From: a virus
DNA: 64,000 nt
IMG/VR virus record: IMGVR_UViG_3300017774_006254
Span: 97,503 to 161,502 of that record
Reading direction: 5' to 3' (one strand)
The position numbers were made by a program, and so were the translations under genes. Below are positions 7,020-27,152 of the stretch, in pieces (the first letter of the stretch is position 1; each line of letters begins with the position of its first letter). Under the pieces are notes generated by a model. It was not told where the DNA came from. It ran no database searches and saw only the letters and a program-made list of their open reading frames with translations.

Positions 7020-7727
7020 ATGTCATACGCGACGAAGCGCACATCTCTTGGGCAGGTAGACGTTGGTAGCGCTCCTGGTGGAGGTGTCATCCGAAGCAAG
7101 AATGGCTTTTCCTACCAGCTGACACCGGAGGATTTGCTTTGGCTCGCGCGGTCCGTGCAGTACGAAGCGGGCAATTATGCGGCAACCGCCTGGACCTACG
7201 CGCAGCGCCTTGCAATGGCACGCGGAAGCAGTCTCAAGAACCTCGTGCAAGCGCATAGTCAGCCTATCAACCCCATCTGGCGTCGGGACGGTGACAAGTG
7301 CCGTCCAGGCGGCACGTATCATGGCCGCGACGAGTGCTCTGAGCGCAGGCTTGCCGTGCGCGATCAAGCCGCCTCGCTTCCCTGGACCAGCGTGCGCCCT
7401 GAAGTTCGCGAAACGATTGTGAAGTTCGCGACGGGGCGCCTGCCAAATCCTGTCCCTCGCGCTGCCAACTTTGCGAATGCGCCAGTCACACAAGGCTATC
7501 TCTCGCGCAACCCCGACTCAGCTATCGTGCTGCGCGACGGCAACTGGTACATCACCGAACGGGCAACGAACTCTTGGCCAGCGGATTTCGTGACCATCGA
7601 AAGCGACGGGCGAATCGCCGGACCCGCAGTTGCCGTCGGAGCAACCGTTGTCGGTGCCGTGGGGGTTGCGGCAGCGGCGAGTTTTGCCTGGTGGGCTTAC
7701 TCGACGAAGTATAAGAAGCGAAGATGA
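7020..7727 (+). CDS. Putative cell-wall hydrolase (SleB/Hydrolase_2-like) with C-terminal TM and basic tail
   Basis: DLLWLARSVQYEAG resembles the catalytic Glu helix; TM followed by KYKKRR. Confidence 0.55.
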   Translation: MSYATKRTSLGQVDVGSAPGGGVIRSKNGFSYQLTPEDLLWLARSVQYEAGNYAATAWTYAQRLAMARGSSLKNLVQAHSQPINPIWRRDGDKCRPGGTYHGRDECSERRLAVRDQAASLPWTSVRPEVRETIVKFATGRLPNPVPRAANFANAPVTQGYLSRNPDSAIVLRDGNWYITERATNSWPADFVTIESDGRIAGPAVAVGATVVGAVGVAAAASFAWWAYSTKYKKRR

Positions 7728-8119
7728 TCGAACTTGTCCGTCCAATTCGAGTTGGGTTCTGGAGGCCAGTTACGCAGCCAGCGAAGTCAGCAAAATCGCT
7801 ACTTGGGCAACTTCTTGAGGGCTTGGACGACTGTCTTTCTCCCGAGCCCGATGTGCGCAAGTTCGTCAGTCGCAACTGGAATGCTGAAGAGCGACAGGTC
7901 GTAGCCGAATACGTCGAAGATCAGCGGTTTCGTTCAGCGGTGTACTTCGGAAGCTCCCGTTGTCGATTTTGCGGCAAAGAGAACGGAGTCGCCGACTTTA
8001 CGGACAAGACGTATGTCTGGCCGGAAGGTTTTGGCCATTACTTGCGTGAACACAGTGTTCGTCCTCCGTTGGAGTTCGTCGCGCATGTACGCCGCCGCCT
8101 TCGGGATGGTTTGCGTTAG
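7724..8119 (+). CDS. Hypothetical protein (YxGxSxCRxC motif)
   Basis: YFGSSRCRFCG...WPEGFGHYLREH. Confidence 0.7.
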   Translation: MIELVRPIRVGFWRPVTQPAKSAKSLLGQLLEGLDDCLSPEPDVRKFVSRNWNAEERQVVAEYVEDQRFRSAVYFGSSRCRFCGKENGVADFTDKTYVWPEGFGHYLREHSVRPPLEFVAHVRRRLRDGLR

Positions 8120-9159
8120 GTGACGATGCCCCTGGCAAGCTCTTCGGCCGCGGCACGCACCTTCAAGAACATCTCTTCGTGAGACTTTGTGGGACCGCTG
8201 ATCTTGTGTAGGTAGATAGCTGTTGTGTTGGGCGTGGCATGGCCCAGGAAGGCCTGGATGTCCTGAAGACGGGCTCCAGCCTTGTCCAGATCGCGAGCGG
8301 CCATGTGACGCAGACCGTGCAGGCGTACGGTGGCCAGGTCTACTTCGGCTCGTTTTGCGGCCCGAGCCAAGATCTTGTTCATCATGCGCGGGGACAGGGG
8401 TTTGTTTGGCTCGCACTTCTCCGTGAGCGCGCAGTCTCGCATCGAGCAGAAGACGCCATCGTCAGGACCCAACCCTTGAAGGCGACCAGCAGCAATCCAG
8501 TACGCTTTGAGAGCCTCGTAGCAGATGCTTGGTATCTCGAAGTGCTTCACGGCGCCGCCCTTCACTCGGCATCGGTATGACCGTGGTGTCGCTTTGAGAT
8601 CGAGGTCTTTTAGGCAAAGCGAGGCGACTTCAGTGCGACGGCGGCCAGTGAAGGCGAAGAACAGCAAGATGGCCCGATCGCGAATTCCAGCAGCATCCGA
8701 TGGGAGCTTGTCTAGTATCAGCTTGAACGTCTGCCACTCCATCGGAATGGCATGTCCGTAGGGCGTAGGCTTGATGTCCGAGCGAGGAACGTGCTCAAAC
8801 GGGTTGTATCTAAGAAGCGGTTCCCCGTTCGCGCCGCTAGGCTTGCGCAAGAAGTCGAAGTACGAACTCATGGCGGAGATTCTGTAGTACGCCGTCGAAG
8901 CCCCGACGTTCTCCATGAGGTGCTTCTTGAACCCAACGGCATGGGCCACCGTTACATCTTCGGGGCACATCCAGTTGTAGAGCGTGAAGAACTGCTTGAT
9001 CGAGGTACGGTACGCACGCTTCGTGTTTTCGGGCTTTCCTTCGAGGAAAGCAGCCAGCATCAACAGATGGCTCTTCAACTTCACGTTGTCCCCATTGCCG
9101 AACCTGGACAACGAAGCACTGTCTCGTGGCACGAACGTAAGTTCAGTAGCGGTACTCAT
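8116..9159 (-). CDS. Tyrosine recombinase/integrase (XerC/D-like)
   Basis: SAM-like N-domain; TGRRRTEV (R), VKGG (K), HGLRH, LGHA, TTAIY catalytic residues. Confidence 0.93.
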   Translation of the reverse strand: MSTATELTFVPRDSASLSRFGNGDNVKLKSHLLMLAAFLEGKPENTKRAYRTSIKQFFTLYNWMCPEDVTVAHAVGFKKHLMENVGASTAYYRISAMSSYFDFLRKPSGANGEPLLRYNPFEHVPRSDIKPTPYGHAIPMEWQTFKLILDKLPSDAAGIRDRAILLFFAFTGRRRTEVASLCLKDLDLKATPRSYRCRVKGGAVKHFEIPSICYEALKAYWIAAGRLQGLGPDDGVFCSMRDCALTEKCEPNKPLSPRMMNKILARAAKRAEVDLATVRLHGLRHMAARDLDKAGARLQDIQAFLGHATPNTTAIYLHKISGPTKSHEEMFLKVRAAAEELARGIVT

Positions 9160-9246
9160 GCGAAGAACAATACTCCTTCTTGACACCAAGTGCTCTGTCT
9201 GACACGGTGAACATCCTGACATCTATTTGTCGGAAAGGACGTACAA

Positions 9247-9456
9247 GTGAGCAAAGTTTCTGAGTTGACGGCGAAGAAGAACGCCAAGGTTGAAGTGCGA
9301 GTTCCAGTCCACATGCAGAAGGAGCACAAGCTTGCCGAGACTGTCACCGGCAAGGTCGGCGACATCCGCACAGAAGGTCGCTTGGCGCGCGTGACGGTCC
9401 TCGTCAGAGGCAAGCCGTTCGAGTTCCGGCCCCAGGACATTTCTCTCGTCTCCTGA
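9247..9456 (+). CDS. Small SH3/KOW-like protein
   Basis: 69 aa, GTG start after AAAGGA. Confidence 0.6.
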   Translation: MSKVSELTAKKNAKVEVRVPVHMQKEHKLAETVTGKVGDIRTEGRLARVTVLVRGKPFEFRPQDISLVS

Positions 9457-9540
9457 ATTCGCCTTCGCCTCGGCGCGGTGGCCAGTGCACCGGAGATCAC
9501 AGCGGACTGGAAAGCCAGAGCCGCTGTTGTCTTTTCTGAA

Positions 9541-9614
9541 GCTCCCGTAGCTCAGTTGGATAGAGCAGTCGCTTCCTAAGCGAAAGGTCCCAGGTTCAAC
9601 TCCTGGTGGGAGCG
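9541..9614 (+). tRNA. tRNA-Arg(CCT)
   Basis: Acceptor GCTCCCG/TGGGAGC, D arm GCTC..GAGC, anticodon loop TTCCTAA, T loop GGTTCAACTCC; no encoded CCA. Confidence 0.93.
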
Positions 9615-9662
9615 TGTGTCGAAAGTCGTTGCTATGTAGTGGCCCGCGAAGTACCATGGGGA

Positions 9663-9911
9663 ATGGTCGAAAGCGCAGCGTACGCGGCAGAATTTGAACT
9701 CGAAACGAGAAGCGCGCAAAGCTCTCGCCTTAGCATCCTTGGCCAGAGCACTAAGATTTGCAGGGGAGACTTTGTGCGCGTCATCGATGGCCCATTGAAG
9801 GGGCGCGGTGGACTTGTCGTCTACGCGTCTATCCACTTTGCGTCCGTCCACTTTGCGTCCGATGGAAAGATTCGCGTTCTTGAGCAACTGCAACTCGCGG
9901 TGGGCCAATGA
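9663..9911 (+). CDS. KOW-motif protein
   Basis: RGDFVRVIDGPLKGRGGLV matches KOW consensus. Confidence 0.55.
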   Translation: MVESAAYAAEFELETRSAQSSRLSILGQSTKICRGDFVRVIDGPLKGRGGLVVYASIHFASVHFASDGKIRVLEQLQLAVGQ

Positions 9912-10754
9912 AGCTACACCACGCGGTCCTCACTGCCGAGAAGATGCTCGAACGACAAGACCTCTCATCAGAAGAACGCATCGCTCTTGTCGTCGTGACT
10001 CGATTCTCGAAGAGAGTGCTTGCCGCAAAGCGGGCCATCCGATCTCTCGAAAAAGCTGTCAGCGGAGAAGACCTGAACCAGGACGAGTTGCCTGCCGGAT
10101 GATAGAGTTGGTCATGCGTAACACGGGCAAAGAAGCACTGCGTCGGCTAGGAGCATTTGTCTGTGGCATCTGCGACGAGCTGTCTGAGAAAGCGGGCTCT
10201 GTTGTCCCGCAGGACGTGCAAGTGGGCATCTACGCCGTAGGGACGACTATCGACGTGTGCGCCGCCTGCCTAGAGCGGCACAGCGAAGAAGCACAGCGAA
10301 AGCAGGCCGAACTCAAGCGCCAGGACGAACACCGTCGTCGAATGGACGAAATCGAGAGGAACCACAAGAAGTGGATGGACAAGCATCTCGAAAAAGCCAT
10401 TCCGCTCCTGTCCGTGACGCACAGTTCAAGCAGCTCCTCCTACAAGCACAGCTGCATTCAAGCTCATGATGATTTGATGGCGGCCACAAACGGTCGCTTC
10501 GGAACGAGACGCTGACGACCATGGCCGACCCGATTCACCACTGCGAACTCTGCGGAAGGAAGCTGGGTCAAATTCGCATCGAGCTTCCGCAGGACATGAT
10601 CGCCCGTATTGAGCTGGAGTCGGAGATGGTAGAAGACCCGACGTGCCTTCGGTTTTGTGACCAGAAGTGCAAGAAACGCTGGGGCGATTTGAAGCAGCAG
10701 GCTGCTTGGAAGGCTCACGGCGCGCTCTGTATGTGCCCCAGATGTCTCAGGTGA
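9908..10754 (+). CDS. Three small hypothetical ORFs (9908-10102, 10099-10515, 10521-10754), two with CxxC pairs
   Basis: Coupled or closely spaced ORFs. Confidence 0.55.
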
Positions 10755-10776
10755 GCGCGCGTGTTACGATCTGCGC

Positions 10777-12276
10777 ATGAGCTACAGTCACAGCCTCGGG
10801 GCCGGTCTATCAGCGCCACTGCTCTCCGCTTCGAATGCGGTGTTGCCGAAGAACACCCTGTCGGTGGCTCCGAAGGCTGCGACTGCGCCTGTGTCAACGG
10901 ATCCGTTTCAGATTGTTCCACCAGAGTGCAGCCGCATGCGTCCTACCGGCACCAGCATCTACCCCACGATTGCTGCGGGTCAGATTGCTATGTTCACTTG
11001 GCCGTATGTGACGCTGGATGACGTCCAGGTTCGGTCTGCGCTTGATGCCATCGTTGGGAACGGTTCACAGGGCGGAGGGCCAGCTGTACTTGCGGGTTTG
11101 GTGAGTGCTGTCAGCTCAGCCGTTGTTGCGACGTCTACCGCTCAGACAGGGCAGGTGACGTCCGACGCTGTGCGCGCAAGAGCGGTCGCCCTTGCTCCTG
11201 CTTTTTTGGCAGCGGGTTTCATCAGAGATGCCGAGGTGAATCAGTCGGTCACGCGGGGGTACTTGTGGATCGCTGCATCTTGGACTGCGGCTCAGAATGT
11301 CAACGAAGCGAAGCGAATCGTGACGTCTGTTCTGAGGTCCGCGCTTCCTCCTGATGCTCTGTGGACGGGAGCAACGCTTCCATCGGGGAAGGTCAAGGCG
11401 ATCTCGGGACTTGTCACGGCAGTGGCGAACGAGTCGGACGTTGCGCTTGAAGCTGCCGCGAAGGAGTCGGTAGTCAGTTTCGTCGAAGCCGCGAGCGCTC
11501 TGGCTTCGGTTGTTGCCACGGTGCTTGGTGGAAGAACCGTATCGAGCGCTGCGGTGGCTATGCGAAACGAGTTCAGCACTTCGTCCGAGAGGATGAGGAA
11601 AGCTGCTTTGGCCATCCAGTCGGCCACCAGCTTGGTCGGTCAAGTTGAGGCCGTGGCTGCGGCGGCGATGGCTCTCCCGGCTGAAGCGCAGAATACGGCG
11701 GGCATTGCGCTACAGGAGATGCAGCAGCGTCTCCGAGAGAGCAAGAGTTGGATCACGGACGGCATGCAGAATGCGCGTTCCGTTCTGGAAACCTGTGCGC
11801 AAGAGACCAACGGAACGGGAGGCATCGCTCGTCGTCTTCGAGATCTCGTGTACGAAGATGCCCGAGCGACCATCGATCGACGAGGCGTACCTACGGTGGC
11901 ACGTGAGTACGCAAAGTGTCAGCTGTGGAAGCGGGCTCAGCAGCAGCTGGACAACGAGCTTCGAGGCCTGGCCGCAGAGCTGAGCGGCGCATGCACTGTT
12001 GCTGGCGGCCTCATTCAGAATGGCAATTCACTCGAAGCTTTGATCGCGACTGTCGACGCCGCACTTGCTCGTCTCGACTTCGTCATCTCTCAGCTCCGGA
12101 TGAACTGGTGGTCGCGTGACTACATGGGAGTACCAGTCGGCTACTGGATTGGTGGCGCATCTGCGATTGCTCTGGTTGGTGGCGGCCTTGTGATTCGGTC
12201 CATCAAGCGAAGGAGAGCGACAGCTGCGCCACCCAAGCCTGCGCCAGTATCCAAGAACAGGAGGAGATCTCGATGA
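10777..12276 (+). CDS. Ala-rich helical membrane-anchored protein, probable virion component
   Basis: MSY..SLGA start; C-terminal TM followed by VSKNRRRSR. Confidence 0.7.
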   Translation: MSYSHSLGAGLSAPLLSASNAVLPKNTLSVAPKAATAPVSTDPFQIVPPECSRMRPTGTSIYPTIAAGQIAMFTWPYVTLDDVQVRSALDAIVGNGSQGGGPAVLAGLVSAVSSAVVATSTAQTGQVTSDAVRARAVALAPAFLAAGFIRDAEVNQSVTRGYLWIAASWTAAQNVNEAKRIVTSVLRSALPPDALWTGATLPSGKVKAISGLVTAVANESDVALEAAAKESVVSFVEAASALASVVATVLGGRTVSSAAVAMRNEFSTSSERMRKAALAIQSATSLVGQVEAVAAAAMALPAEAQNTAGIALQEMQQRLRESKSWITDGMQNARSVLETCAQETNGTGGIARRLRDLVYEDARATIDRRGVPTVAREYAKCQLWKRAQQQLDNELRGLAAELSGACTVAGGLIQNGNSLEALIATVDAALARLDFVISQLRMNWWSRDYMGVPVGYWIGGASAIALVGGGLVIRSIKRRRATAAPPKPAPVSKNRRRSR

Positions 12277-13193
12277 GCTACGTCGGACACAGGCATGGCG
12301 TCCCGCCAATGACCCGGCACTTCTACTTGCGTGACCGTGGCCTCGGACAGAGCCCCTCACCTCCGCTTCGCTCTTTTGACGAGCTGCCAAAAGAGGGTGA
12401 GCGATTCAACATCATGTGGGCGCTCTTGAGCGACGCTCCGACGATCCAAGCTCTTCGAAATCGACTGATCGAGCTTCGAGCGTTGAACCCTAGCGAAGCG
12501 GATGATTCTTTGTCCGAGACAGGGGCACTTGTCACTGGATTGAAGAACTTCTGGCTCAGGGCTTCATCCGATCCAGACCTGTGGCCAGGTATCCACGCTC
12601 ACCAGAACTTCAACTTCGGCCCGACGAATATGCAGAACGGAGTGGGTCAGATTCGCATCAATAGGGGCATGTGGGACCTCTTGAACGGTGCTGACGTGCA
12701 CCGACCATGGCGCGAGACGGACCGTGGATTTGTACGCTTGCGCGCTTCGGACCCTGTCATGACAGCGATGCGCAACAGGCTTTACAGCCTCGGCTACATC
12801 GACGCAGCCGTCATGCCTTCTGTTCAGGAAAACAGTGAGTTCGTGCGCGCTCTCATGACGTACGCATACGAGCTTGGCGGCATTGGTGTAGACGCGGGAT
12901 CCTGGCCGAGCGGCTTCAATTTCGGCCCGAACGACGGAGATAAGCTCAGGATCTCGTCGCAGCTTCTTAACTCACTGATCAACACACAGGACAACCCGAG
13001 GTCTGTGGCGGCCGTGGAGGGGTTCACATCGGGGATTGCGACCATGCGCACAAAGCCGCCGTTGATTGGCAGCGTGGGCGCAGGTTCGCCGTCGGCGCTC
13101 TTGTTGACGCCAGCGCCTGTCTTGAGAAGGGTAGCCATCTCCAGCATTGCATCTCGCCCCGGCTTGGTCGCGGCAATGACGAAGGCCAGATGA
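12273..13193 (+). CDS. Probable virion protein with two internal repeats
   Basis: MSY start, RGLGQ; LRNRL..WP..NFGP..RI module occurs twice. Confidence 0.7.
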   Translation: MSYVGHRHGVPPMTRHFYLRDRGLGQSPSPPLRSFDELPKEGERFNIMWALLSDAPTIQALRNRLIELRALNPSEADDSLSETGALVTGLKNFWLRASSDPDLWPGIHAHQNFNFGPTNMQNGVGQIRINRGMWDLLNGADVHRPWRETDRGFVRLRASDPVMTAMRNRLYSLGYIDAAVMPSVQENSEFVRALMTYAYELGGIGVDAGSWPSGFNFGPNDGDKLRISSQLLNSLINTQDNPRSVAAVEGFTSGIATMRTKPPLIGSVGAGSPSALLLTPAPVLRRVAISSIASRPGLVAAMTKAR

Positions 13194-13654
13194 TGGATGC
13201 CAACGCACAAAAAGACCTGTACTGGTTCTTCGTCCAGCTCTGGCCATCGATGGTCGTGGCTCTCATCGTGTACGTGGGCGGTCTGACAACCAACGCGCTC
13301 GCGTCTCTGTTTTTCCCAGCGGCAAAGGCGTACCTCTCTGGCAAGCAAGCAGAGATCGATCCCTCGTGGCCGTTTCTGTTTCGCTTGTGGGCGTCGACAC
13401 GAGTGTCTCACCCGTTTCTGGTCGGCGCGCTGATTTCTCTTGTTCCAGAACTTCCTCGGCCGGAGTTCGCCGAGGGCGAAATTAGCGCGGCTATGTGGTT
13501 CGGGCTCGTCGGCATGCTCAACGGGCAGGTGCACATGATCGGTGAGTCCGTTGTTCGACAAATTACCAGGGTGGTGGGACTCATTCTTCCGTGGGCTCGA
13601 ACGAAGCTTGGCCTTCCAGCAAGCGAGACCGAATCGGACAAGACGGATGCCTGA
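13190..13654 (+). CDS. Multi-TM membrane protein (holin-like candidate)
   Basis: 3-4 hydrophobic segments in 154 aa. Confidence 0.55.
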   Translation: MMDANAQKDLYWFFVQLWPSMVVALIVYVGGLTTNALASLFFPAAKAYLSGKQAEIDPSWPFLFRLWASTRVSHPFLVGALISLVPELPRPEFAEGEISAAMWFGLVGMLNGQVHMIGESVVRQITRVVGLILPWARTKLGLPASETESDKTDA

Positions 13655-14000
13655 CATTCTGAAGAAGCCTGGTGTTGTTCTGGTCCTGGCGATGGCGATC
13701 TTGCTCCTGGTCGCACTGGCTGCGACGGCGTTCCAAGGCTGCCACTGCTCGGGGACGCCCGCTCTAATCGTCACGGGAATTGATGCGGGGCCTGGAGAGC
13801 GCATCATCGAGGACAGGCTTGACGCTCGCGTCCAGCAGTTGTCGGTGCGCATTGAGCAGATCGAAGAGAAGTTCTCAGACGACCTAGCGGCTTTCGATGC
13901 GCAGCAGCGCGCTGAGTACGAGCGCTTGCGCGAAGGTGAAGACCTGGAAGCCGCAGCACGAATGCTGTCTGATTGGAATCGGCACCGGACTCGCCAATGA
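13647..14000 (+). CDS. Membrane/lipoprotein-anchored coiled-coil protein (spanin-like candidate)
   Basis: N-terminal TM ending FQGC, then coiled coil. Confidence 0.5.
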   Translation: MPDILKKPGVVLVLAMAILLLVALAATAFQGCHCSGTPALIVTGIDAGPGERIIEDRLDARVQQLSVRIEQIEEKFSDDLAAFDAQQRAEYERLREGEDLEAAARMLSDWNRHRTRQ

Positions 14001-15331: not shown

Positions 15332-15335
15332 AACC

Positions 15336-15809: not shown

Positions 15810-15844
15810 TTGACGACCCAGTCTGAACCTGTCAGACACGTGGT

Positions 15845-17317: not shown

Positions 17318-17321
17318 GGGG

Positions 17322-17531
17322 TCACCTGTGTCGACGGCGACGCCTGTTCTTGCTCATCGCTCTTGCCGGAAGGAAGAGGAGCGCGGCGCCCAGTCCCGCA
17401 ATCAGCAGGCCCGTTCCCCACCTTGACTGACTGACACCCTCACCAAGGCCGTTCATGCCACAGCCGCATCCCTCCAAACCCTGCAACGGAAATCGGGTGC
17501 TGCGCATACCTGTGTTCTGCGTGTAACTCAT
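17322..17531 (-). CDS. Small TM protein with Arg tail (probable virion membrane protein)
   Basis: MSY start, GLEGCGCGMNGLGE, TM, MSKNRRRRRHR. Confidence 0.7.
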   Translation of the reverse strand: MSYTQNTGMRSTRFPLQGLEGCGCGMNGLGEGVSQSRWGTGLLIAGLGAALLFLPARAMSKNRRRRRHR

Positions 17532-17620
17532 AGCAGTCACTGTAGCCCACCCGCGCTCGTCTCCCAAGCCAACTATCAGCTAACTATCAATCAGCCGCGA
17601 ATTGATACAGACGAGACTCG

Positions 17621-18832
17621 ATGCGAATTCTAATGGCCACGAACACATATCTTCCCCATGTTGGCGGTGTAGCCAATTCTGTCGACAGAATGGTCAGAAG
17701 CCTTCGAAAGATGGGGCATGACGTCCTTGTCGTGGCGCCTGGGGACAGCGCGATGGCACCCATCTATCTCGATGATGAGCACGTGGTGCGGATGCCTGCA
17801 CTCGCTTCTGTCGCTGGCAGTGGATTTGCCCTCCCCCTGCCGACGGCCGAAAAACTGACGGCGATCATCGCCGCATTCGATCCGGACATCATCCACTCGC
17901 ACCACCAATTCTCGCTTGGAAAAGCCGCGCTCACGGCGGCTCGCCTTCTTCAGAAGCCCATCGTCGTCACCGTTCACACGTTCCTTGAGAACATGGTCAC
18001 GAGCTTCAAGTCGCCGATCAAAACATCGCCGTCAACAAAGATTGTTGCGGCAGCCGCTTCGTTCCTGGGGATGGCCACGTTCCCGATTTTCTATGAGAAC
18101 CAGTGTGACGCGGTGCTCGCGCCAACCGATAGTGCAGCCAGGCTTCTTCTTGAAAGAGGGGTCACGTCTCCCATCTACATCACGCCGTCGGGCATCGACG
18201 CTGACATGTACGCGCGGCCTGACGGCGCTCCGGTGAGAAAGAAGTACGCGATAGATCCAGGCGCGTTCGTAATCGGTCACGTTGGCCGACTGTCGAAGGA
18301 GAAGAATCTCATTCTTCTTGCGAATGCGATGGCCATCGCTCTGGCCGACAACTTCGGCACCCGAGCTGTCATCGTGGGAGACGGGCCCTGCATGGGCGAG
18401 ATGAAGGCAATCTTTCAGCGGCGTCGCGTCGGGGCTCGTGTGCGCTGGCTTGGCGTGAAGCGTGGCCAAGATCTGGCGAACGCATACGGAGCTATGGACG
18501 TGTTCGGCTTTGCTTCGGTCATCGAAACCCAAGGCCTTGTCCTGGCTGAGTCAATGGCGGCGAGTACGCCTGTCATCGCGCTGGATGGACCAGGCACGCG
18601 GGACATCATCCGCAGTGGGGAGAACGGCCAATTGGTCTCCGAGTTGAGCCCGGAGGCGCTCGCAGAGGCGATGATCGATTGGGCGAAGATTCCTCGGCCA
18701 GAACGAGTCAGGAGGCGTGCTCAGGCAAGGGCTACTGGGTTCGATTACGCGCTTGAGAAAACCACAGCGAGACTCGTGTCTGTGTACATGCGGGTTGCAC
18801 ATGATGTCAGACAGCGAGTACAGTCGCGCTGA
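17621..18832 (+). CDS. Glycosyltransferase family 4 (GT-B)
   Basis: MRILM..YLPHVGGV, VGRLSKEKN, ETQGLVLAESMA. Confidence 0.92.
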   Translation: MRILMATNTYLPHVGGVANSVDRMVRSLRKMGHDVLVVAPGDSAMAPIYLDDEHVVRMPALASVAGSGFALPLPTAEKLTAIIAAFDPDIIHSHHQFSLGKAALTAARLLQKPIVVTVHTFLENMVTSFKSPIKTSPSTKIVAAAASFLGMATFPIFYENQCDAVLAPTDSAARLLLERGVTSPIYITPSGIDADMYARPDGAPVRKKYAIDPGAFVIGHVGRLSKEKNLILLANAMAIALADNFGTRAVIVGDGPCMGEMKAIFQRRRVGARVRWLGVKRGQDLANAYGAMDVFGFASVIETQGLVLAESMAASTPVIALDGPGTRDIIRSGENGQLVSELSPEALAEAMIDWAKIPRPERVRRRAQARATGFDYALEKTTARLVSVYMRVAHDVRQRVQSR

Positions 18833-19245: not shown

Positions 19246-19280
19246 TTGCCCAAGGGTGGAGCCAAGGCACCGGGTCGCGT

Positions 19281-19676
19281 ATGCTTGAGCCCATGCATGT
19301 GAACCCCTCTCCCGCAAGCGTTCAACCGTACGTCCCCTCGCTGTACCTTCCAGGGAGCCTCGGACGCTTTCGTCAGTACCCTCGGCGCGTCGTGACGCCT
19401 ATTCCAGGCGCGGGCTACAACGTGGGCCGAGGCGTGTGGGGAGAGCAGGTCTTGTACCTCGGCGGGTACGGCGACCTGTTCCGTCGAGGCCGCTCGTACC
19501 CGTACGGCAAATACGCTCAGGTGCCATTGCGTGGCATGGGACAGGTTCCGACTTCGCCTTGGTACATGAGGGGCTGGGTCTGGGCTCTCGCAGGAGGAGG
19601 CTTGGCTGTCCTTGGCGCTGGGTCTTACATGGCCCTTCGCAAGAACGGTCGCAGCCGTCGCAGGAGAGCGCGATGA
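19281..19676 (+). CDS. TM protein with Arg tail (probable virion protein)
   Basis: LRGMGQ, TM, LRKNGRSRRRRAR. Confidence 0.7.
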   Translation: MLEPMHVNPSPASVQPYVPSLYLPGSLGRFRQYPRRVVTPIPGAGYNVGRGVWGEQVLYLGGYGDLFRRGRSYPYGKYAQVPLRGMGQVPTSPWYMRGWVWALAGGGLAVLGAGSYMALRKNGRSRRRRAR

Positions 19677-20122
19677 GCTACGCATCCAAGAAGTATTGGA
19701 ACGAGTACGCAAGTGCTTGCCAAGGGATGGCGGACGAAGGCGCGTGCTTGAACCGAGCGATTCAGCATGGGGCGTCTGTGACGTTCGCGGCGAGCGGCAT
19801 GGGCCAGGTGCCCGTGCAGACCGTCCAGCAGGGCATCGCCACAGCTGCGAACGTCTCGGAGATCACTGTTCAGCTCTTGCGCAACCCTGAGATGTTTGCG
19901 TCGCAGCAAGCGCCTCGAATCGTCAATGCGCTCGACACGTACATCGTGACGCCGTTAGTCGACCGAGCTGCGGACAGAGCCACGCCGTACTTCGTGCGCT
20001 ACGTGATGCCGCCGCTGGCGGTGCTGTACGTGCTGTCTGGTCTCGCGGCTTTCTACAGCTACAAGGTTTTGGAAGGTCAGCGAGACCGAAAGGTGTCGCC
20101 GAACCGTCGTCGACGCAGGTAA
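19673..20122 (+). CDS. TM protein with Arg tail (probable virion protein)
   Basis: MSY start, SGMGQ, TM, VSPNRRRRR. Confidence 0.72.
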   Translation: MSYASKKYWNEYASACQGMADEGACLNRAIQHGASVTFAASGMGQVPVQTVQQGIATAANVSEITVQLLRNPEMFASQQAPRIVNALDTYIVTPLVDRAADRATPYFVRYVMPPLAVLYVLSGLAAFYSYKVLEGQRDRKVSPNRRRRR

Positions 20123-20145
20123 TCAAAAGAAGGCTGGGCGCCACC

Positions 20146-20700
20146 ATGAATGTTTCAAAACGTGATCTTTTCTCGATGAGTTCGCAGCAGGCGGCGGCCG
20201 GTCGTCAGGCCTGGACGAAGGCTGGTCAGAAGGGCCGATTGGCAAGCTCGTCGTTTGATGCCGAGGCTATGGCTCCGAAGACTTGGATCATCTGGGTCGG
20301 ACCCAAGGGTGATGAGATCGCGACGATTGAATGCGAGCTGTACGCCGTGCCACGTGCCAGCAATGCGAACGAGCAGATCGGTATGCTGATTGGCATGTGC
20401 CCCCGGTGTGGCGAGAACTTCACGGTCCGCGAGGACAACAAGGGCATGACGTGCGAGCGCGTGTCTTTCCGCAAAGCGCCCAAGCACCTGAAGATCAACT
20501 GGCAGTTCCATTGCAAGAACGTGCTGATGAAGCCGGTGATGGACGACGATCAGATCCCTGTCATCAGCAGTCCCGAGCGCTGGGCCTGTGACTACTGCAA
20601 GGGCTGGTGTGTGCGAGTGAGCGGGGGCATTGCTACAACGGATATGACCGGAGTCACGCAGTTCTCAGTATCGGGCAACACGCCCATCATCGGAAGGTAG
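20146..20700 (+). CDS. Zn-binding hypothetical protein
   Basis: CPRCG and CDYCKGWC. Confidence 0.7.
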   Translation: MNVSKRDLFSMSSQQAAAGRQAWTKAGQKGRLASSSFDAEAMAPKTWIIWVGPKGDEIATIECELYAVPRASNANEQIGMLIGMCPRCGENFTVREDNKGMTCERVSFRKAPKHLKINWQFHCKNVLMKPVMDDDQIPVISSPERWACDYCKGWCVRVSGGIATTDMTGVTQFSVSGNTPIIGR

Positions 20701-20702
20701 CT

Positions 20703-21053
20703 ATGTCGTATCACTTGGGCCCGAGTCCAATTCCGCAACCACTGGTGCGGCCGAGGTACACGGCCCCACAGCCTGTGTACGAGTTCCTGCCGCTGGCACA
20801 AGTTCCTTCTCAGCCCACAGGGCTGGTTCTGGACGCGACCACGAAGCGCGTTCTCATTGCGGTAGGGCTGTTCTTGCTCGCCGTGGTGCTCTTCTACGTG
20901 TTCCGAGGTAAGCCGCTTGCGAAGAACCATCGCCCAATCAAGCGGGCCTCGACGCCAGAACTTGCGAAGAATTTGTACGACCGACTTGAGCGACGCGGGG
21001 GCGCGAACGAGGCGACGATGCGAAGTCTCAAAGCGTACTCAAGAAAGAAGTAG
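20703..21053 (+). CDS. TM protein with basic C-terminus (probable virion protein)
   Basis: MSYHLG start, TM, LAKNHRP. Confidence 0.7.
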   Translation: MSYHLGPSPIPQPLVRPRYTAPQPVYEFLPLAQVPSQPTGLVLDATTKRVLIAVGLFLLAVVLFYVFRGKPLAKNHRPIKRASTPELAKNLYDRLERRGGANEATMRSLKAYSRKK

Positions 21054-21070
21054 TCTGTCGTAAGAACCAG

Positions 21071-21100
21071 TTGACACGAGTGTCAGACAGGTGGTACTTC
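21071..21100 (+). promoter_or_regulatory. Sigma70-like promoter containing a TGTCAGACA palindrome
   Basis: TTGACA (21071) then TGGTACTTC, 18-bp spacer. Confidence 0.5.
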
Positions 21101-21104
21101 TGAC

Positions 21105-21741
21105 GCTCGATGATCGCTGATTCAGTACGCAGAGCCGCAGAGTACGTCGTCATGTTTTGTGGCGCGGCGAGCCTGTTCAGCGATACAGCTTTTCAAGTAG
21201 CGCTGGTTGCCGCGGTAGCTTTGATTGCGTTCGATACGCTAGATCGCGTCAAAACATGAAGGCGCTCACAAGCATCGCAGCGACGTACGCCGCACGCCCG
21301 GACGAGCAAGTTGTGTCCGATGTGCTGGGTGGCGTTGTCATGTCTGTGACGGCACTGCTTCTGTTCTTCTGGGAGACCTTCTGGCAGTGGCTAACAAAGG
21401 ATCTCCGGACAGGTGAAACCAAGCGGAAGCGGCGTAAAGCGAGCCGCGTCTTCTTCGGCTGCCATTCTTGCAAGGTGGTAGCCAAGTACGCTCTCTCGGA
21501 TGGTCCGAAGGTGAGCATTGCGAACTCAGGACTGATCGACCATTTCCACCGGCGATCAATAATCATCGCATGGAGAACGAGTGCTACAGGTCTTAGTAGC
21601 ATGCGGGTGGCGCCCGCAGTTCAGCGGATCTGATACCAGGATGCGCGTAATTCGCGGCTGGGCAGAGTCATTAGTCAGGTAAGCGAATGAGAACCCGCAA
21701 ACTAACCAGGGCGGGCAAGTAGTGTATCCTGACCTGCCACT
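21105..21741 (+). ncRNA. Candidate large structured ncRNA (possibly GOLLD-like)
   Basis: Perfect 10-bp helix 21150-21159/21250-21259, many hairpins, some with GNRA-type loops; lies between a promoter and the tmRNA. Confidence 0.5.
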
Positions 21742-21743
21742 AT

Positions 21744-22109
21744 GGGCGTGAAAGGTGTCGACGGAGTGACTGGAGACCGTGTTGCGTGCAGGGGTTGATC
21801 GGCTGGCCCCTATATCAAGCCGATCATCGTAGATGCGAACGAAAGCAACTACGCTCGCGCCGCGCAAGCAGCCTGAGCCGTTTGGTGAAGTAGGCGGCGG
21901 ACTTCATCGGGCGTCATTTAGCCGAGGCAAGCTTGTTTTGTATCCTCAGGATTCAAGCCCAAGGCTGTTCATCTGAAGATTGGTGGAGGAGTGACCGTCA
22001 CTCCCGACCGGGCCGCACCAGCTGAGAGCGGTACTCTCGAACAGGTGATACGCACGTAGACGCACGGAATTTGGCATTTCGGACCCGGGTTCGACTCCCG
22101 GCACGTCCA
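21744..22109 (+). ncRNA. ssrA: tmRNA
   Basis: Acceptor GGGCGTG/CACGTCC-A with G3.U70, T arm CCGGGTTCGACTCCCGG, tag ORF 21835-21876 ANESNYARAAQAA*. Confidence 0.95.
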
Positions 22110-22110
22110 T

Positions 22111-22140
22111 CGCCACCTGGAAACGGGTGGCGTTTTCTTT
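22111..22140 (+). terminator. Intrinsic terminator
   Basis: CGCCACCTG-GAAA-CGGGTGGCG followed by TTTTCTTT. Confidence 0.85.
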
Positions 22141-22145
22141 GGCCG

Positions 22146-22193
22146 TTGACACCTGTCTGACATGCGCGTAGCGTGTCGGACATATGTCAGACA
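22146..22193 (+). promoter_or_regulatory. Sigma70-like promoter overlapped by three TGTCnGACA palindromes
   Basis: TTGACA-17 bp-TAGCGT; palindromes at 22154, 22174, 22185. Confidence 0.65.
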
Positions 22194-23539
22194 ATTCTGA
22201 AGCGAACGCCTACGCGCCTCATTCCGATGTGACCATCAAGGAGATGGGGGAGGACTTCAAGAGGAGTCCGATCCGCAACTACGTTGCGCCGCCTGCCCCC
22301 GGATACGACGTGCATGGTCTTTGGTCCTGCTTCGGCTCTCAGCACCGCTCGGGCTACGCAACTCACGCGATGGCACTTCATTGGATGCTGTCGAAGGAGC
22401 TTAGTATTCCGACGCAGCTGACTCCACATCGCACGATGGACGTCGACATCGAGAGGTTCCCAGCGGACAGAGAGCAGGTGCTGTTCGAGTGGCACAAGGA
22501 GGCTGTCGGCATCCCTCACGCGCTGTTCGTCAGCTTCCCGCTGGAAGTGGCTGCGGAGATGGAAGAGGCGGCGGGCGCTGTCGTTCCGTACTGCGCGTTC
22601 GAAGGCGACCGTGTGAGCAAGTACGCTCGGGACCTTGCTGAAGGTCCAATCTTCAAGAAGGTCTGGGTTGTCAGCGACTTCGTGAAGCAATCCTTGCTGG
22701 CGGCGGGCGTTCAGTCAGACCGTGTCGACGTGGTGCGACCGATGCTCACGGATGGCTTCTGGTCGATGACCGACATCGACAAGCTCCGGACGAGTCGCGA
22801 TCGACCGGTGACCGCCCAGGACCCTTTCGTGTTCGGCGTCATGGGCACGTGGCAGAAGCGCAAGGGCATGCTGGATTTGGTCCGCGCGTACTATTCGTCG
22901 TTTCGACGCGAAGAGCATGTCGAGCTGGTCATTCGCACCAGCTCCATCGCGAGCAATGTCACGATTCGTCGACTGAAGGAACAGATCACAGCGGATCTTG
23001 CTGCGGTTGCTGCGGAGTTTGGCGATCACAACTTCCCGCATGGGCACAGGCAACCTCGTCTTCGTCTTGAACTCGGCACAGACCTGACGGACCAGCAGGT
23101 GATCGAGTGGCTCGGTACGCTCGACTGCTACGTGACGCCTTCGTACGGAGAAGGTCTTGGTATCCCGCAGGTCTGGGCGAAGGCACAGGGCGTCCCGATG
23201 GTTGCCAGTTCATTCGGCGCGGTCGGCGATCTGCTCACAGAGATTGCAATCGCGAACGGAGGGACCGTCGACGAGATGTTCCCGCATGAACTCGTGCCGG
23301 TTGACCCAGAGATCCTCAGGCTTGGCTTGATGTTCGAGCGGTCGACGCAATGGGGCGGGTACAGGGTGCCAGACCTCGCACAGCACATGCGCTCTGCGAT
23401 GAACGCCGGAAGGATCACGGATGTTGCCGGTGCGATGTACGTGAGGCATGCGTTCGGGAAGGACACGCTTGTTCCGCTCCAGACTGCGCTCGCGAAGGTC
23501 ATCCCGAGCAAGATGTCAGAGGAGTGGTTCGAAAAATGA
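22184..23539 (+). CDS. GT-B (GT4-like) glycosyltransferase
   Basis: SGYATHA, GTWQKRKG, PSYGEGLGIP. Confidence 0.85.
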   Translation: MSDNSEANAYAPHSDVTIKEMGEDFKRSPIRNYVAPPAPGYDVHGLWSCFGSQHRSGYATHAMALHWMLSKELSIPTQLTPHRTMDVDIERFPADREQVLFEWHKEAVGIPHALFVSFPLEVAAEMEEAAGAVVPYCAFEGDRVSKYARDLAEGPIFKKVWVVSDFVKQSLLAAGVQSDRVDVVRPMLTDGFWSMTDIDKLRTSRDRPVTAQDPFVFGVMGTWQKRKGMLDLVRAYYSSFRREEHVELVIRTSSIASNVTIRRLKEQITADLAAVAAEFGDHNFPHGHRQPRLRLELGTDLTDQQVIEWLGTLDCYVTPSYGEGLGIPQVWAKAQGVPMVASSFGAVGDLLTEIAIANGGTVDEMFPHELVPVDPEILRLGLMFERSTQWGGYRVPDLAQHMRSAMNAGRITDVAGAMYVRHAFGKDTLVPLQTALAKVIPSKMSEEWFEK

Positions 23540-24597
23540 TTTCTGTCGTCGGTCACTTTGGCACCCTGTACTCGTACTCGACTGTTGCAGGGAACATCGC
23601 GGAAGCCCTGCGCGCTGAAGGCATGCTGGCAAACTGCCAGAACCTCGATGAAAGATGGCACCCACGATGGGCAGCGCTCTCCGAGGTGAAGGGGGAGCCG
23701 ACACACGGCCTGCTCGTCTCCGCGCCTAACCATTACGTTGACGTGTTCGCGAGCATGTTCGGCCGCGATCGCGCGGCGATCTTCGTGAGCCCGAACACAG
23801 ACGCGCTGGCGGACGAGCACGCTCAGACCATCAGCCTGTTCGGGCTTGTGATCGCGCCTTCGAGGTTCTGTGCGAACGCGGTGGCGCGGCAGTGCACAGT
23901 CGACAGCGTGTCCGTCTTGCCGCTCGGGACGCCCCTCGTCCTGGAGAAGTCTTTCGAGCGCATTGAGCGCATCCACGCTGAAGGGCCTAGCACGCGACCA
24001 CGCGTGCTTCACTTCACGTCGGACCAGGCGTGGCCATCCCGCAAGGGCACGGAGACTCTGCTGGCTGCGTGGGCGGCTCTGTGTCCGCGGGCTGACCTGA
24101 CGGTCCACGGACCGCCTTCTTTGCGCAAGGAAGCGCTCTACGCCATCGCAGACCTTGGCATCGATGAAAGCGTCACGTACGAGACGTCTGGTCGGTACGG
24201 GTCTTCTGATGATGAGCTGTCGAGCTTGTTCGCGTCAGCAGATCTCATCGTCGCCCCATCGCGTTCTGAGGGATACGGGATGATGATTGCTACGGCTGTC
24301 GACTACGGGATTCCGCTTTTGACCACGTACAACACAGGTCACGCGGAGTTCCTTCGGTCTTACGCAGGAGCGTGGTTGCAGATTCCGACGCCGAACGCCG
24401 GTCCAATCGCCTACGAGTGGGGCCAAGCTCCCCTTCTTGAGGCGGAGACTCTTGCGGCGGCACTTCGAGTCGCGTTGATGCCGAGCGTGCGAATGAGCAT
24501 GATCGTCGACGTGGCAAGTCCTGTTGAGCCCGCGGTGGGTTCTTGGAAATGGGCGTCTGCCCAATGGGTCGAACGCCTGAAAGAGTGGATGGCATGA
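23536..24597 (+). CDS. GT-B (GT4-like) glycosyltransferase
   Basis: RKGTETLL, PSRSEGYGM, GIPLL. Confidence 0.82.
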   Translation: MISVVGHFGTLYSYSTVAGNIAEALRAEGMLANCQNLDERWHPRWAALSEVKGEPTHGLLVSAPNHYVDVFASMFGRDRAAIFVSPNTDALADEHAQTISLFGLVIAPSRFCANAVARQCTVDSVSVLPLGTPLVLEKSFERIERIHAEGPSTRPRVLHFTSDQAWPSRKGTETLLAAWAALCPRADLTVHGPPSLRKEALYAIADLGIDESVTYETSGRYGSSDDELSSLFASADLIVAPSRSEGYGMMIATAVDYGIPLLTTYNTGHAEFLRSYAGAWLQIPTPNAGPIAYEWGQAPLLEAETLAAALRVALMPSVRMSMIVDVASPVEPAVGSWKWASAQWVERLKEWMA

Positions 24598-24893
24598 GCA
24601 GCAAGAAACCAGTTCTGAAGCACCTCAACGGCGAGGGGCCTGTTGAGATTTTGACTCGCACCATGGACTTCAACATCCAGCAGATGGAAAGCCCTGACGG
24701 GAAGAGGGTGGACCTTCCCGCGAACACTCTCGTCGCGTTCACAGCTCAACGGTTCCGTGAGCTTGGCGACACTGACGAGTGGGAGTTCACTACGGTCAAC
24801 GTGGCCCCGTCTGGTGCTTCGGTGACGAGCTACGTCTACCTCTCCGGCGTGGACATCTTCATGGTGCGGGCAGCCGCCCGAGTGGCACTCTGA
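24594..24893 (+). CDS. Hypothetical protein
   Basis: Coupled ORF, ATG at 24594. Confidence 0.6.
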   Translation: MSSKKPVLKHLNGEGPVEILTRTMDFNIQQMESPDGKRVDLPANTLVAFTAQRFRELGDTDEWEFTTVNVAPSGASVTSYVYLSGVDIFMVRAAARVAL

Positions 24894-25105
24894 TGTCGTC
24901 GCGCGAAACGCAGAGCGCACGACTTTCGTTTCGTGCGACCACGCAGAACATGGCGAAGCTCATCGCTGTCGCAAAAGCGAAGGCGATGACGACGGCGAAA
25001 GGCCTACCGAACGTATCGGCGGCCATGAACTTCCTCATCGAGGAATTTGATATCACTACGCTGGCTCGACGGAAGCCGAAGAAGAAGGAGAAGTCTGATG
25101 TCTGA
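24893..25105 (+). CDS. Small ribbon-helix-helix-like protein
   Basis: RLSFRAT strand followed by two helices (NVSAAMNFLIEE). Confidence 0.45.
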   Translation: MSSRETQSARLSFRATTQNMAKLIAVAKAKAMTTAKGLPNVSAAMNFLIEEFDITTLARRKPKKKEKSDV

Positions 25106-25607
25106 TGACAATTTGTTTGGTGTGCCGGACTTCAAGCCCGATGCTGTTGCGGGCACCGCTTTGACGCTGTCGAATGCTGTCGAAGCGCGTGCTCTTGTTC
25201 GGCGCATGTCTGGCGAGGAGGATCCCACTCGATGCCATTTTCACTGCGTCATGTGTGGATGGTCCAAGACGCTTCACTTCGACGAAGAAGAGCGAGCCGC
25301 GGTCGGAGATGTCCGCTCGTACACGGGTCCTTGTCCTGACTGCAATTCCATGACGCTTCAGCCGTTCGACACGATCGCCAATGGCGCGTTCAAGTCGATC
25401 CATGAGATGGCCAGCGACAACCGCAAGAAGGACTACAGCGAGGCCGCGGACGTCTTCATTGATCGGGTGACAGATCGGTTCGGCGGCAGCATCGCAAGCA
25501 TGGCGCCCAAGGACCCTGTGGCGTCAGGTGGAACGACACGAGACCAGTTTCCCGACGCCGACATGAGCGACACTTCTGTGGGCGCCACACGCACGAAGCA
25601 GGAGTAG
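25098..25607 (+). CDS. Zn-ribbon protein
   Basis: CVMCG...CPDCN. Confidence 0.65.
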   Translation: MSDDNLFGVPDFKPDAVAGTALTLSNAVEARALVRRMSGEEDPTRCHFHCVMCGWSKTLHFDEEERAAVGDVRSYTGPCPDCNSMTLQPFDTIANGAFKSIHEMASDNRKKDYSEAADVFIDRVTDRFGGSIASMAPKDPVASGGTTRDQFPDADMSDTSVGATRTKQE

Positions 25608-25609
25608 TC

Positions 25610-26833
25610 ATGGAGCACCGTTTTCAGCACATCGATGGTTGGTTCGACTTTGACGACATCTACAGCGAGGCCGTGGCCTCAGTGGACGGCGCAGCGGTGT
25701 TCGTCGAGGTCGGCTCTTGGCTCGGCCGTTCAGCGGCCTTCATGGGCGTGGAGATCGTGAATTCCGAGAAGCCCATCTCGTTCTTCTGCGTGGATACGTG
25801 GAAGGGATCCGTTACCGAGAAGTATCACCAGGACATGGTCGCTGCGAATGGAGGGTCGCTTCGATCTTTGTTCGAGAAGAACGTCGAAGGACTTCCCGTG
25901 ATGTCTCTCGAAGGCGACTCCGCTGAGTCCGCTTCGACGTTTGATGACGAGTCGGTTGACTTCGTCTTCATCGATGCAGCTCACGACTTCGAATCGGTGA
26001 GCCGAGACATTCGAGCGTGGTATCCGAAGGTGAAGCCAGGCGGCGTCATCGCGGGACACGACATCGGCTGGAGCGGGCTCTTTGCCGCAGTGCAAAGCGC
26101 CATCCCGGCGAAGGAGATTGAGCAGCGGCGTTCGAGCTGGTGGCACCGGAAGCCGCTTGCTGTGGAACCAAAGCTTCCAGAGCCGCTCGACTTCCAGAGC
26201 GCCGATGCGGTCGTCTGCATCCCATGGGTGAACCGAGAAGACCTCCTGGAGAAGGCGATCTCGTCTGTCCCCTCGTGGCTGCGCGTTGTGGTCATCGATC
26301 ACGGCCAGGACATGTCCATTTCACTTCCCAGCGGAGTGACCCGCTTGAGCACGGCAACGCGGCTCAAGTTCACACAGGTTCAGAATCTCATGCTGCGCCT
26401 CGCCGCAACGAATGGGATCAAGCACCTGTTCTTCATGCACTCGGACGCTTCGTGCTCGACGGACGTCTTCGACAGGCTCAGTGAGGCGGCGCGAGCAAAC
26501 GACGACTGGGGCGTCATCTTCACCCACTACGACGTGCTGGCGGCGTTCCATGTGCCGAACCTGCTATCGCGCGTCGGTGTCTGGGACGAGACGTTCGAGT
26601 GGTATCGAGCTGACTGCGACTACTACAGGCGCGTGCGCCTCGCAGGCCTTGCCACGGCCGACACAGGCCTGGTCGTTCACCATGCACCGTCGTCGACCAT
26701 CGGCGCCGATCCCGCGGAGAAGGCGCACGTGGACGCCGTCGCTGAGTGGCACAAGCTTCACTACCTCCACAAGTGGGGCGGAGAGGACGGGGGAGAGAAG
26801 TTCTCCGTCCCGTACAATCAGAGCGGAAAGTAG
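25610..26833 (+). CDS. Class I SAM methyltransferase fused to a GT2-like domain
   Basis: VEVGSWLGRS, VFIDAAH, GGVIAGHD; C-terminal FMHSD, GVWDETF, DCDYYRR. Confidence 0.85.
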   Translation: MEHRFQHIDGWFDFDDIYSEAVASVDGAAVFVEVGSWLGRSAAFMGVEIVNSEKPISFFCVDTWKGSVTEKYHQDMVAANGGSLRSLFEKNVEGLPVMSLEGDSAESASTFDDESVDFVFIDAAHDFESVSRDIRAWYPKVKPGGVIAGHDIGWSGLFAAVQSAIPAKEIEQRRSSWWHRKPLAVEPKLPEPLDFQSADAVVCIPWVNREDLLEKAISSVPSWLRVVVIDHGQDMSISLPSGVTRLSTATRLKFTQVQNLMLRLAATNGIKHLFFMHSDASCSTDVFDRLSEAARANDDWGVIFTHYDVLAAFHVPNLLSRVGVWDETFEWYRADCDYYRRVRLAGLATADTGLVVHHAPSSTIGADPAEKAHVDAVAEWHKLHYLHKWGGEDGGEKFSVPYNQSGK

Positions 26834-26834
26834 C

Positions 26835-27152
26835 TCAAGCGCGGTGTGTGGCCGTCCACACGTAGTTCGCGACCCAGCAAATCGCAGCCCCTGCAAAAGC
26901 CCCCATCAGCGGGGCTTTTTTGCTGCCTCCAGCAGCCATGGACCCCACCGCGCCCGCGATGGCACCGCCCACAACAGCCGCCTGTGTCCCCGCGTTCATC
27001 GCGCCAACGAGACGAGTCCGGAAGGCATTGCTGACGGCGGTCGGGTCGCACATGGATGACGTGAGAACCTGGCCCATGCCCACATGGCGCAGGTTGGCCT
27101 TCATGTCTCGGATCATCCACTCGGGAACGTCTGTTTTTGACTTGTAGCTCAT
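26835..27152 (-). CDS. Small glycine-zipper TM protein (probable virion protein)
   Basis: MSY start, MKAN, VGMGQ, two GxxxG-rich helices. Confidence 0.68.
   Translation of the reverse strand: MSYKSKTDVPEWMIRDMKANLRHVGMGQVLTSSMCDPTAVSNAFRTRLVGAMNAGTQAAVVGGAIAGAVGSMAAGGSKKAPLMGAFAGAAICWVANYVWTATHRA

Follow-up and report, generated by a model that had tools for sequence, protein, structure and literature searches.

A 64,000-nucleotide stretch of DNA from an uncultured bacterial virus (positions 97,503 to 161,502 of the IMG/VR record IMGVR_UViG_3300017774_006254), referred to as the window, was analyzed for a short N-terminal leader that recurs on otherwise unrelated proteins. The leader opens with the tripeptide Met-Ser-Tyr (MSY), the cap, and typically carries a glycine tag such as GLGQ or GMGQ further on. 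The window is the final 64 kb of a 161,502-bp record (G000), which has direct terminal repeats, a GC content of approximately 59%, and a rating of complete. The seven MSY starts listed in an initial annotation (7020+, 10777+, 12273+, 17531−, 19673+, 20703+, and 27152−) were all located and head open reading frames (ORFs) of 69–499 amino acids (aa). The tags SLGQ, SLGA, GLGQ, GLGE, and GMGQ (three times) also lie where that annotation had placed them. The eight genes concerned are as follows, given in window coordinates, where TM denotes transmembrane.

7020–7727, + strand: g146; MSY at 7020–7028, SLGQ at 7044–7055, a predicted SleB-type lytic transglycosylase domain, a C-terminal TM helix, and a KYKKRR tail.
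10777–12276, + strand: g154, 499 aa; MSY, SLGA at 10792–10803, a C-terminal TM helix, and a KNRRRSR tail; the orthologue in the related genome G002 opens MSYRAQHGFGLGQ.
12273–13193, + strand: g155, 306 aa; MSY, GLGQ at aa 23–26 (12339–12350), and no TM helix; the G002 orthologue opens MTY, and GLGQ(S/T)P is conserved.
17322–17531, − strand: a 69-aa ORF; MSY, then GLEGCGCGMNGLGE (two tags around a Cys cluster), a TM helix, and a KNRRRRRHR tail.
19281–19676, + strand: g166; no MSY, and an internal tag VPLRGMGQV (GMGQ at 19533–19544) directly before a TM helix and Arg tail.
19673–20122, + strand: g167; MSY, a small Cys domain, a second tag GMGQ at 19796–19807, a TM helix, and an NRRRRR tail.
20703–21053, + strand: g169, 116 aa; opening MSYHLGPSP, a central TM helix, and a basic C-terminal region; the MSYH start is kept in G001 and G004.
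26835–27152, − strand: g176; MSY, a variable spacer, GMGQ at 27069–27080 directly before the conserved mature part, and a hydrophobic C-terminus.

A C-terminal hydrophobic helix was found in six of these eight proteins, five of which also end in an Arg/Lys-rich tail. The 233 genes of G000 were called with a self-trained codon model. Since this caller is home-made, single gene starts are uncertain; at 10777 and 20703, alignments of orthologues favor the MSY start over the one called. The 69-aa ORF was missed by the caller, and its homologues occur at 70055 (−) of G002 and 152489 (+) of G001. These relatives came from a profile scan of IMG/VR, which yielded nine loci, from which three whole genomes were taken: G001 (171 kb), G004 (160 kb), and G002 (298 kb). 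The statistics below cover G000 and these three genomes. Megablast of the region against phage records and a scan of viral contigs with the single protein g154 gave no match. Pfam and PHROGs likewise gave zero matches for every MSY protein and for most core proteins of the structural module, and literature searches found no account of this virus group or of such a leader.

A six-frame scan located nine further MSY ORFs of the same kind at 21.7–46.9 kb of the genome, many of which end in a hydrophobic helix followed by a tail such as NRRRRRRS. Genome-wide, approximately 16 structural-type ORFs thus open with MSY, encoding membrane and core proteins that are otherwise unrelated. Two more MSY starts, on a DnaQ-like exonuclease and on a small soluble protein, were set aside as apparent chance occurrences. 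MSY is the most frequent N-terminal tripeptide in G001, G004, and G002, and the second most frequent in G000. The raw number of M[ST]Y starts was 11, 20, 14, and 25 in G000, G001, G004, and G002, respectively, against an expectation of 2–5. When a start was moved to an in-frame MSY within 40 codons, an adjustment that biases the counts upward, these numbers became 18, 23, 17, and 30 versus 2.0–4.7 expected (binomial p of 4e-11 to 4e-15). Among the M[ST]Y proteins, G[LMF]G is overrepresented within the first 45 residues (odds ratio 19–45 across the four genomes), as are a C-terminal TM helix (5–18) and a basic tail (3–6), and the share of the proteome bearing the leader is 7–10%. The leader marks the membrane-anchored, arginine-tailed late proteins of the virus. 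Against proteomes shuffled within each protein, the core motif G[LM]GQ is enriched 6–11-fold (z 5.1–10.5); the looser form [GS][LM]G[QEA], in which the motif was originally proposed, reached only approximately twofold (z 2.3–3.9).

The carriers are otherwise unrelated: a BLASTP comparison among the 22 M[ST]Y proteins of G000 with leader and tail trimmed gave a single similar pair, the paralogous g066 and g067. The Ser of MSY is encoded by AGC, AGT, TCG, TCA, and TCC, which represent both Ser codon families, and Ser and Thr interchange at position 2. This indicates that selection acts on the protein. Identical bases, ATGAGCTACGCA, are found at four MSY genes. Shine–Dalgarno sites are ordinary at MSY genes and present in 73% of them. 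A leaderless transcript, or a −10-like box just 5′ of the ATG, was ruled out by this percentage and by the lack of enrichment of such a box (p 0.10). It was also observed that the Arg codons of a basic tail (CGCAGGAGG...) double as the Shine–Dalgarno site of the next MSY gene at 12240–12272 and 19640–19672 of the window and at 41103–41140 and 46903–46940 of the genome, so that tail and leader are physically coupled in operons.

The leader consists of the cap Met-Ser/Thr-Tyr, a variable spacer that is usually 1–15 and up to approximately 40 residues long, and the tag hydrophobic-x-Gly-(Leu/Met/Phe)-Gly, which is most often followed by Gln. G[LMF]G lies within the first 60 residues in 36 of the 88 M[ST]Y proteins, mostly at positions 5–18. 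Among these 36 tags, 15 are directly followed by Gln and 24 have a hydrophobic residue two places before the first Gly, which is Leu or Met in 13. In the shortest leaders (MSYxGLG), this hydrophobic residue is Tyr3 of the cap, and weaker forms of the tag, such as MSYxLGQ, also occur. The leader is predicted to be unstructured, and in each protein it immediately precedes the conserved mature part. The tag adjoins this part in both g155 and g176. The spacer before the g176 tag has 25 residues in G000 and approximately 90 in G001, whose orthologue opens MSYARGLGQ, carries a spacer approximately 60 aa longer, and has SLGQ at the same boundary.

In alignments of orthologues, the leader behaves as a module that can be present or absent, many orthologues lacking it, and internal module boundaries bear the tag as well. 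The g166 and g167 orthologues are fused into one ORF in G004 with RGLGA at the junction, and they are two genes in G000 and G001, of which the second opens with MSY. The internal tag VPLRG[LM]G of g166 and the second tag of g167 are kept in all four genomes. Of the 33 members of the g167 family, 32 open with MSY or VSY and 31 have the second tag, which is followed by Gln in 30 of the 31; the first tag is mostly GLGS. Two homologues of g167 are missing exactly the small Cys domain between the tags, so that MSYAGLGQ is joined straight to the body. The suggestion that unrelated membrane proteins share an N-terminal signal is hence borne out: it is real, is kept in the relatives, and behaves as a removable or addressing leader.

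The best characterized cargo is g146, for which 119 homologues of 35–93% identity were found in metagenomes. M[ST]Y opens 50 of the 119, and 41 of these 50 have a tag at positions 5–12, in which GLG is followed by Q, A, S, T, D, or E. Another 51 members are short and leaderless, and they retain the domain and the TM helix. The AlphaFold2 (AF2) model of g146 has a predicted local distance difference test score (pLDDT) of 89 overall and below 50 for residues 1–12. It resembles SleB structures in the VIA comparison, with Z scores of 10.9 for 4f55 (root-mean-square deviation 2.8, 116 of 128 residues) and 10.5 for 4fet, the next match falling to 3.8. Residue E49, a candidate for the catalytic Glu, is invariant in 42 homologues. 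On the strength of this model, g146 is assigned as a predicted SleB-type lytic transglycosylase with a C-terminal TM helix; no Pfam match was obtained at E ≤ 0.1, the Hydrolase_2 model included. Phage PRD1 has membrane-associated murein hydrolases, which g146 resembles. A tyrosine recombinase of the integrase family (window 8116–9159, −) lies beside the SleB-like gene in all relatives, and it was unexpected given the terminal repeats of the virus.

A candidate enzyme that lies outside the window emerged when genes core to the four genomes were screened for invariant Cys and His residues.

Genome 47236–47832, − strand: g069; motifs DCD...HTHV...LDP.

C120 (DCD), H158 (HTHV), and D175 (LDP) are invariant in 34 homologues and follow the Cys-His-Asp order on a papain-like core. 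Foldseek matched the AF2 model (pLDDT 82.6) to 3kd4 and 3isr, which are putative Cys proteases, and to LapG (4u65 and 4fgq), PNGase, TG2/3, and CPR-C4, with probabilities of 0.97–1.00 and E values down to 1.8e-4; the putative proteases and LapG are the closest. The Transglut_core hidden Markov model (HMM) gave no match in G000, g069 included, and it scored 25.3 bits against a cut-off of 23 for the homologue P0226, which is 64% identical to g069. These data identify g069 as a conserved enzyme of predicted transglutaminase fold with a Cys-His-Asp triad, and to that extent the initial annotation's proposal of a virus-encoded enzyme is supported. The family comprises 2,074 clusters at 50% identity (E ≤ 1e-3). 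A tblastn search of g069 and g050 against phage records gave no match. When the g069 family was used as a profile against PDB sequences, the only matches were designed Kelch repeats, in which one short stretch was matched repeatedly, and this result was discarded as spurious. Three homologues of 375–541 aa (P0273, P0274, and P0275) contain an insert just before the catalytic Cys with weak, sub-threshold matches to Hint and LAGLIDADG, which is probably an intein at the active site.

In all four genomes, g069 or its orthologue heads the main row of MSY genes. The orthologues of g154 and g155 lie within this row in G002, which makes the window cluster a dispersed portion of one gene set. Two viruses that have a leaderless g146 homologue possess neither a g069 homologue nor an excess of MSY or G[LM]GQ.

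A homologue of g069 is found in SSIP-1, a cultured tailless phage with an internal membrane (PMC6356626). Its gp34, annotated as a structural (virion) protein, aligned with g069 over 135 columns spanning the Cys, His, and Asp motifs (hhalign probability 96.9%, E 1.3e-10), and all four g069 orthologues matched it by phmmer (E 5e-8 to 1e-5). A C-terminal TM helix is present in gp34 and absent from g069. The likeness extends to the surroundings of gp34, where four small proteins (ORF36, gp37, ORF52, and gp53) have G[LM]G 17–34 residues from the N-terminus and three of the four end in a hydrophobic helix. The SSIP-1 genome differs in its size of 43.8 kb and in the cap, since none of the four small proteins opens with MSY. 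The enzyme and the Gly tag hence occur there without MSY, so that the tag plus enzyme are older and wider, and the MSY cap is clade-specific. Other SSIP-1 proteins gave no phmmer match to the four genomes except for one hit of gp43 and a marginal hit of gp53 in G004 only.

A layout other than that of typical tailed phages, probably with an internal membrane, had been proposed for this virus, and the present data agree with it, as the enzyme is shared with SSIP-1 and no tailed-phage hallmark was detected among the 30 largest proteins. A PHROGs search of these proteins gave no terminase, portal, HK97 capsid, tail protein, or head-maturation protease. A PHROG hit to "terminase large subunit" was rejected, because the match is an intein within a helicase.

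Genome 81383–84505 (L005:9383-12502), + strand: g121, SF2 helicase of 1040 aa; intein with Hint at aa 103–212 and a LAGLIDADG homing endonuclease at aa 323–377.

The most conserved protein of the structural module gave a weak language-model lead to the PM2/PRD1 capsid families. The packaging ATPase anticipated by the initial annotation was not recovered, as no A32 and no convincing FtsK family was found.

Three known systems are instructive for the function of the leader. Adenovirus protease (AVP; adenain, Peptidase_C5) cleaves (M/I/L)XGX|G and (M/I/L)XGG|X sites. Many virion and core proteins of adenovirus, which also has basic DNA-condensing proteins, thus carry a similar hydrophobic-x-G-x-G motif. 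The tags described here have a hydrophobic residue at the P4-equivalent position in 24 of 36 cases and Leu or Met in 13 of 36, so the form is similar, whatever the register of a cut might be. The enzyme differs, since a six-frame search of the complete genome at E ≤ 10 matched neither Peptidase_C5 (PF00770) nor C48 (PF02902). An adenain-type protease, as initially suspected, thus receives no support: neither adenain nor a Ulp1-type protein was matched, the candidate enzyme is of predicted transglutaminase fold, and the P4 preference is followed in only 13 of 36 tags. The MSY cap also has no adenovirus counterpart.

In phage T4, the capsid targeting sequence (CTS) of the internal proteins IPI–III is removed by the prohead protease gp21. 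It is likewise a short, conserved N-terminal leader on otherwise unrelated cargo, and has the feature of addressing the protein and ending in the cut motif of the protease. T4 is tailed with an HK97-fold head, and its serine protease of the assemblin type uses the cut motif (L/I)-x-E; in the present virus, the candidate is a Cys enzyme of predicted transglutaminase fold, the cargo consists of membrane-anchored, putative virion proteins, and the cut is inferred. No head-maturation protease was among the PHROGs matches of the 30 largest proteins, and the assemblin type was not searched for by name. The third comparison concerns lasso-peptide protein B and LapG/BTLCP, transglutaminase-fold Cys-His-Asp enzymes whose cuts fall at small residues and remove a short leader or retention module from the N-terminus. 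Lasso leaders have a conserved Tyr, well away from the cut, as a recognition element, which is a precedent for a remote MSY cap. The similarity of g069 to LapG (4u65_E and 4fgq) is at the fold level only, as the Peptidase_C93 (PF06035) HMM gave no match at E ≤ 10. These systems differ further in that no context of ribosomally synthesized and post-translationally modified peptides (RiPPs) is present here, and the substrates would be approximately 16 large putative virion proteins instead of one peptide.

The best reading, to which we assign a probability of roughly one half, is that the leader is recognized and cut during assembly. The leader would be recognized as the particle forms and cut at the Gly tag by the transglutaminase-fold Cys-His-Asp enzyme g069, with the MSY cap acting as a clade-specific recognition or docking element. 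Such a mechanism would be analogous to the CTS of T4, in which an address is combined with removal by the prohead protease. A cut after Gly-x-Gly would expose Gln, which could, speculatively, cyclize to pyroglutamate. In favor of this reading, the enrichment of M[ST]Y and of G[LM]GQ, and the link between them, recur in four related genomes. It is further supported by the protein-level selection, the unrelatedness of the carriers, the predicted disorder of the g146 leader, the position of the tag beside the mature part in g155 and g176, the g166/g167 fusion in G004, and the two g167 homologues without the segment between the tags. The conserved triad, predicted fold, and gene position of g069, its homology to gp34, the G[LM]G motifs near gp34, and the absence of an MSY or G[LM]GQ excess in the two viruses without a g069 homologue point the same way. 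Several points weigh against it. All steps between tag and cut are inferred, as are the cut position and virion membership, and a pure cut site needs no conserved extreme N-terminus. Approximately one third of the M[ST]Y proteins have no recognizable Gly tag. The start-codon correction favors MSY, although the raw counts are nevertheless far over expectation. The transglutaminase fold also houses cross-linkers, amidases, and acetyltransferases. The enzyme-absent controls comprise two genomes only, of which G007 keeps a mild excess of G[LMF]G.

A more ambitious version is possible but doubtful. Here, the cap and the Gly tag together would form a virion "postcode and cut mark" that determines the entry of proteins into the particle, in a hitherto undescribed lineage of 150–300-kb tailless, membrane-containing bacterial viruses. 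The cap might be read by the N-terminal helical half of the transglutaminase-fold protease, as RiPP enzymes read leader peptides.

Alternatively, the leader might be an uncleaved addressing or docking tag, in which MSY and GLG(Q) bind a pocket on the shell, a scaffold, or a virion-bound enzyme and recruit membrane proteins, like the targeting peptides of encapsulins or microcompartments. The conserved extreme N-terminus suggests a free-end epitope, the leader is predicted to be disordered, the tag is common to unrelated cargo, and in SSIP-1 the homologous enzyme is a TM-anchored component of the virion. However, conserved tags also lie deep within proteins and at the fusion junction of the g166/g167 orthologue, where no free N-terminus is nearby, and the strictly conserved catalytic triad of the neighboring enzyme is left unexplained. 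We regard docking without cleavage as unlikely.

A transglutaminase reaction appears improbable. The Gln of G-[LM]-G-Q would serve as the acyl donor, and g069 would cross-link it to lysines or to an N-terminal amine, stitching membrane proteins to the shell or core. This is consistent with the predicted fold of g069, which matches TG2/TG3, and with the Gln that follows 15 of the 36 N-terminal tags and, in the g167 family, 30 of the 31 second tags. However, Gln is not kept per site, as shown by the six residues that follow GLG in the g146 family and by the first tag of g167, which is mostly GLGS, and the best structural matches of g069 are putative proteases and LapG.

Other genes of the window bear on a further alternative or adjoin the leader-bearing genes.

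778–1218, − strand: dual-specificity phosphatase (DSPc, 34 bits), kept in all four genomes.
17621–18832, 22184–24597, and 25610–26833, + strand: a GT4 glycosyltransferase, two glycosyltransferase-like genes (core in all four genomes), and a methyltransferase–glycosyltransferase fusion, interleaved with MSY genes.
20146–20700, + strand: a core protein of 184 aa in which one His and seven Cys (two CxxC pairs) are invariant, directly after g166/g167 in all four genomes.
3160–4407, + strand: a protein of 415 aa, strongly conserved in relatives over its C-terminal third (54–80%), with a weak, sub-threshold match to the ABC1 atypical kinase domain.

The 184-aa protein gave no family match. The phosphatase might act on the Ser/Thr-Tyr cap. 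It is very improbable that the cap is a phosphorylation or O-glycosylation site that switches assembly and is set or erased by this phosphatase and the several glycosyltransferases. Position 2 alternates only between the hydroxyl residues Ser and Thr, the Tyr is fixed, and the phosphatase gene is core, which, with the glycosyltransferase genes listed above, speaks for that idea; however, neither the phosphatase nor the glycosyltransferases have a direct link to the leader, a small residue at position 2 is also required for methionine removal, and the Gly tag is left unexplained. Least probable of all is the absence of any shared function, with the common start stemming from one ancestral gene or from a nucleotide-level signal for translation start, for which the paralogous g066/g067 pair and the exact bases common to four genes could be cited, but which is largely refuted already by the use of five different Ser codons, the unrelatedness of the remaining pairs among the 22 trimmed proteins, the retention of the cap across orthologues of 35–93% identity, and the ordinary Shine–Dalgarno sites and absence of a special upstream box at MSY genes.

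Proteolytic maturation is known for tailed phages and for eukaryotic jelly-roll viruses (adenovirus, poxviruses, African swine fever virus, and virophages). Cleavage is nowhere mentioned in a 2019 review on membrane-containing phages. The "postcode and cut mark" version, if true, would be the first case of propeptide-based maturation among tailless membrane viruses of prokaryotes, convergent with the maturation of adenovirus, poxvirus, and asfarvirus. That a membrane-anchored, SleB-like cell-wall enzyme also bears the leader is a hint of an entry device resembling a zymogen. With a conserved leader on this part of the proteome and a conserved enzyme that also occurs in the cultured phage SSIP-1, the question is directly testable. 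The leader would also allow the virion proteome to be predicted from sequence alone for a large group of uncultured viruses.

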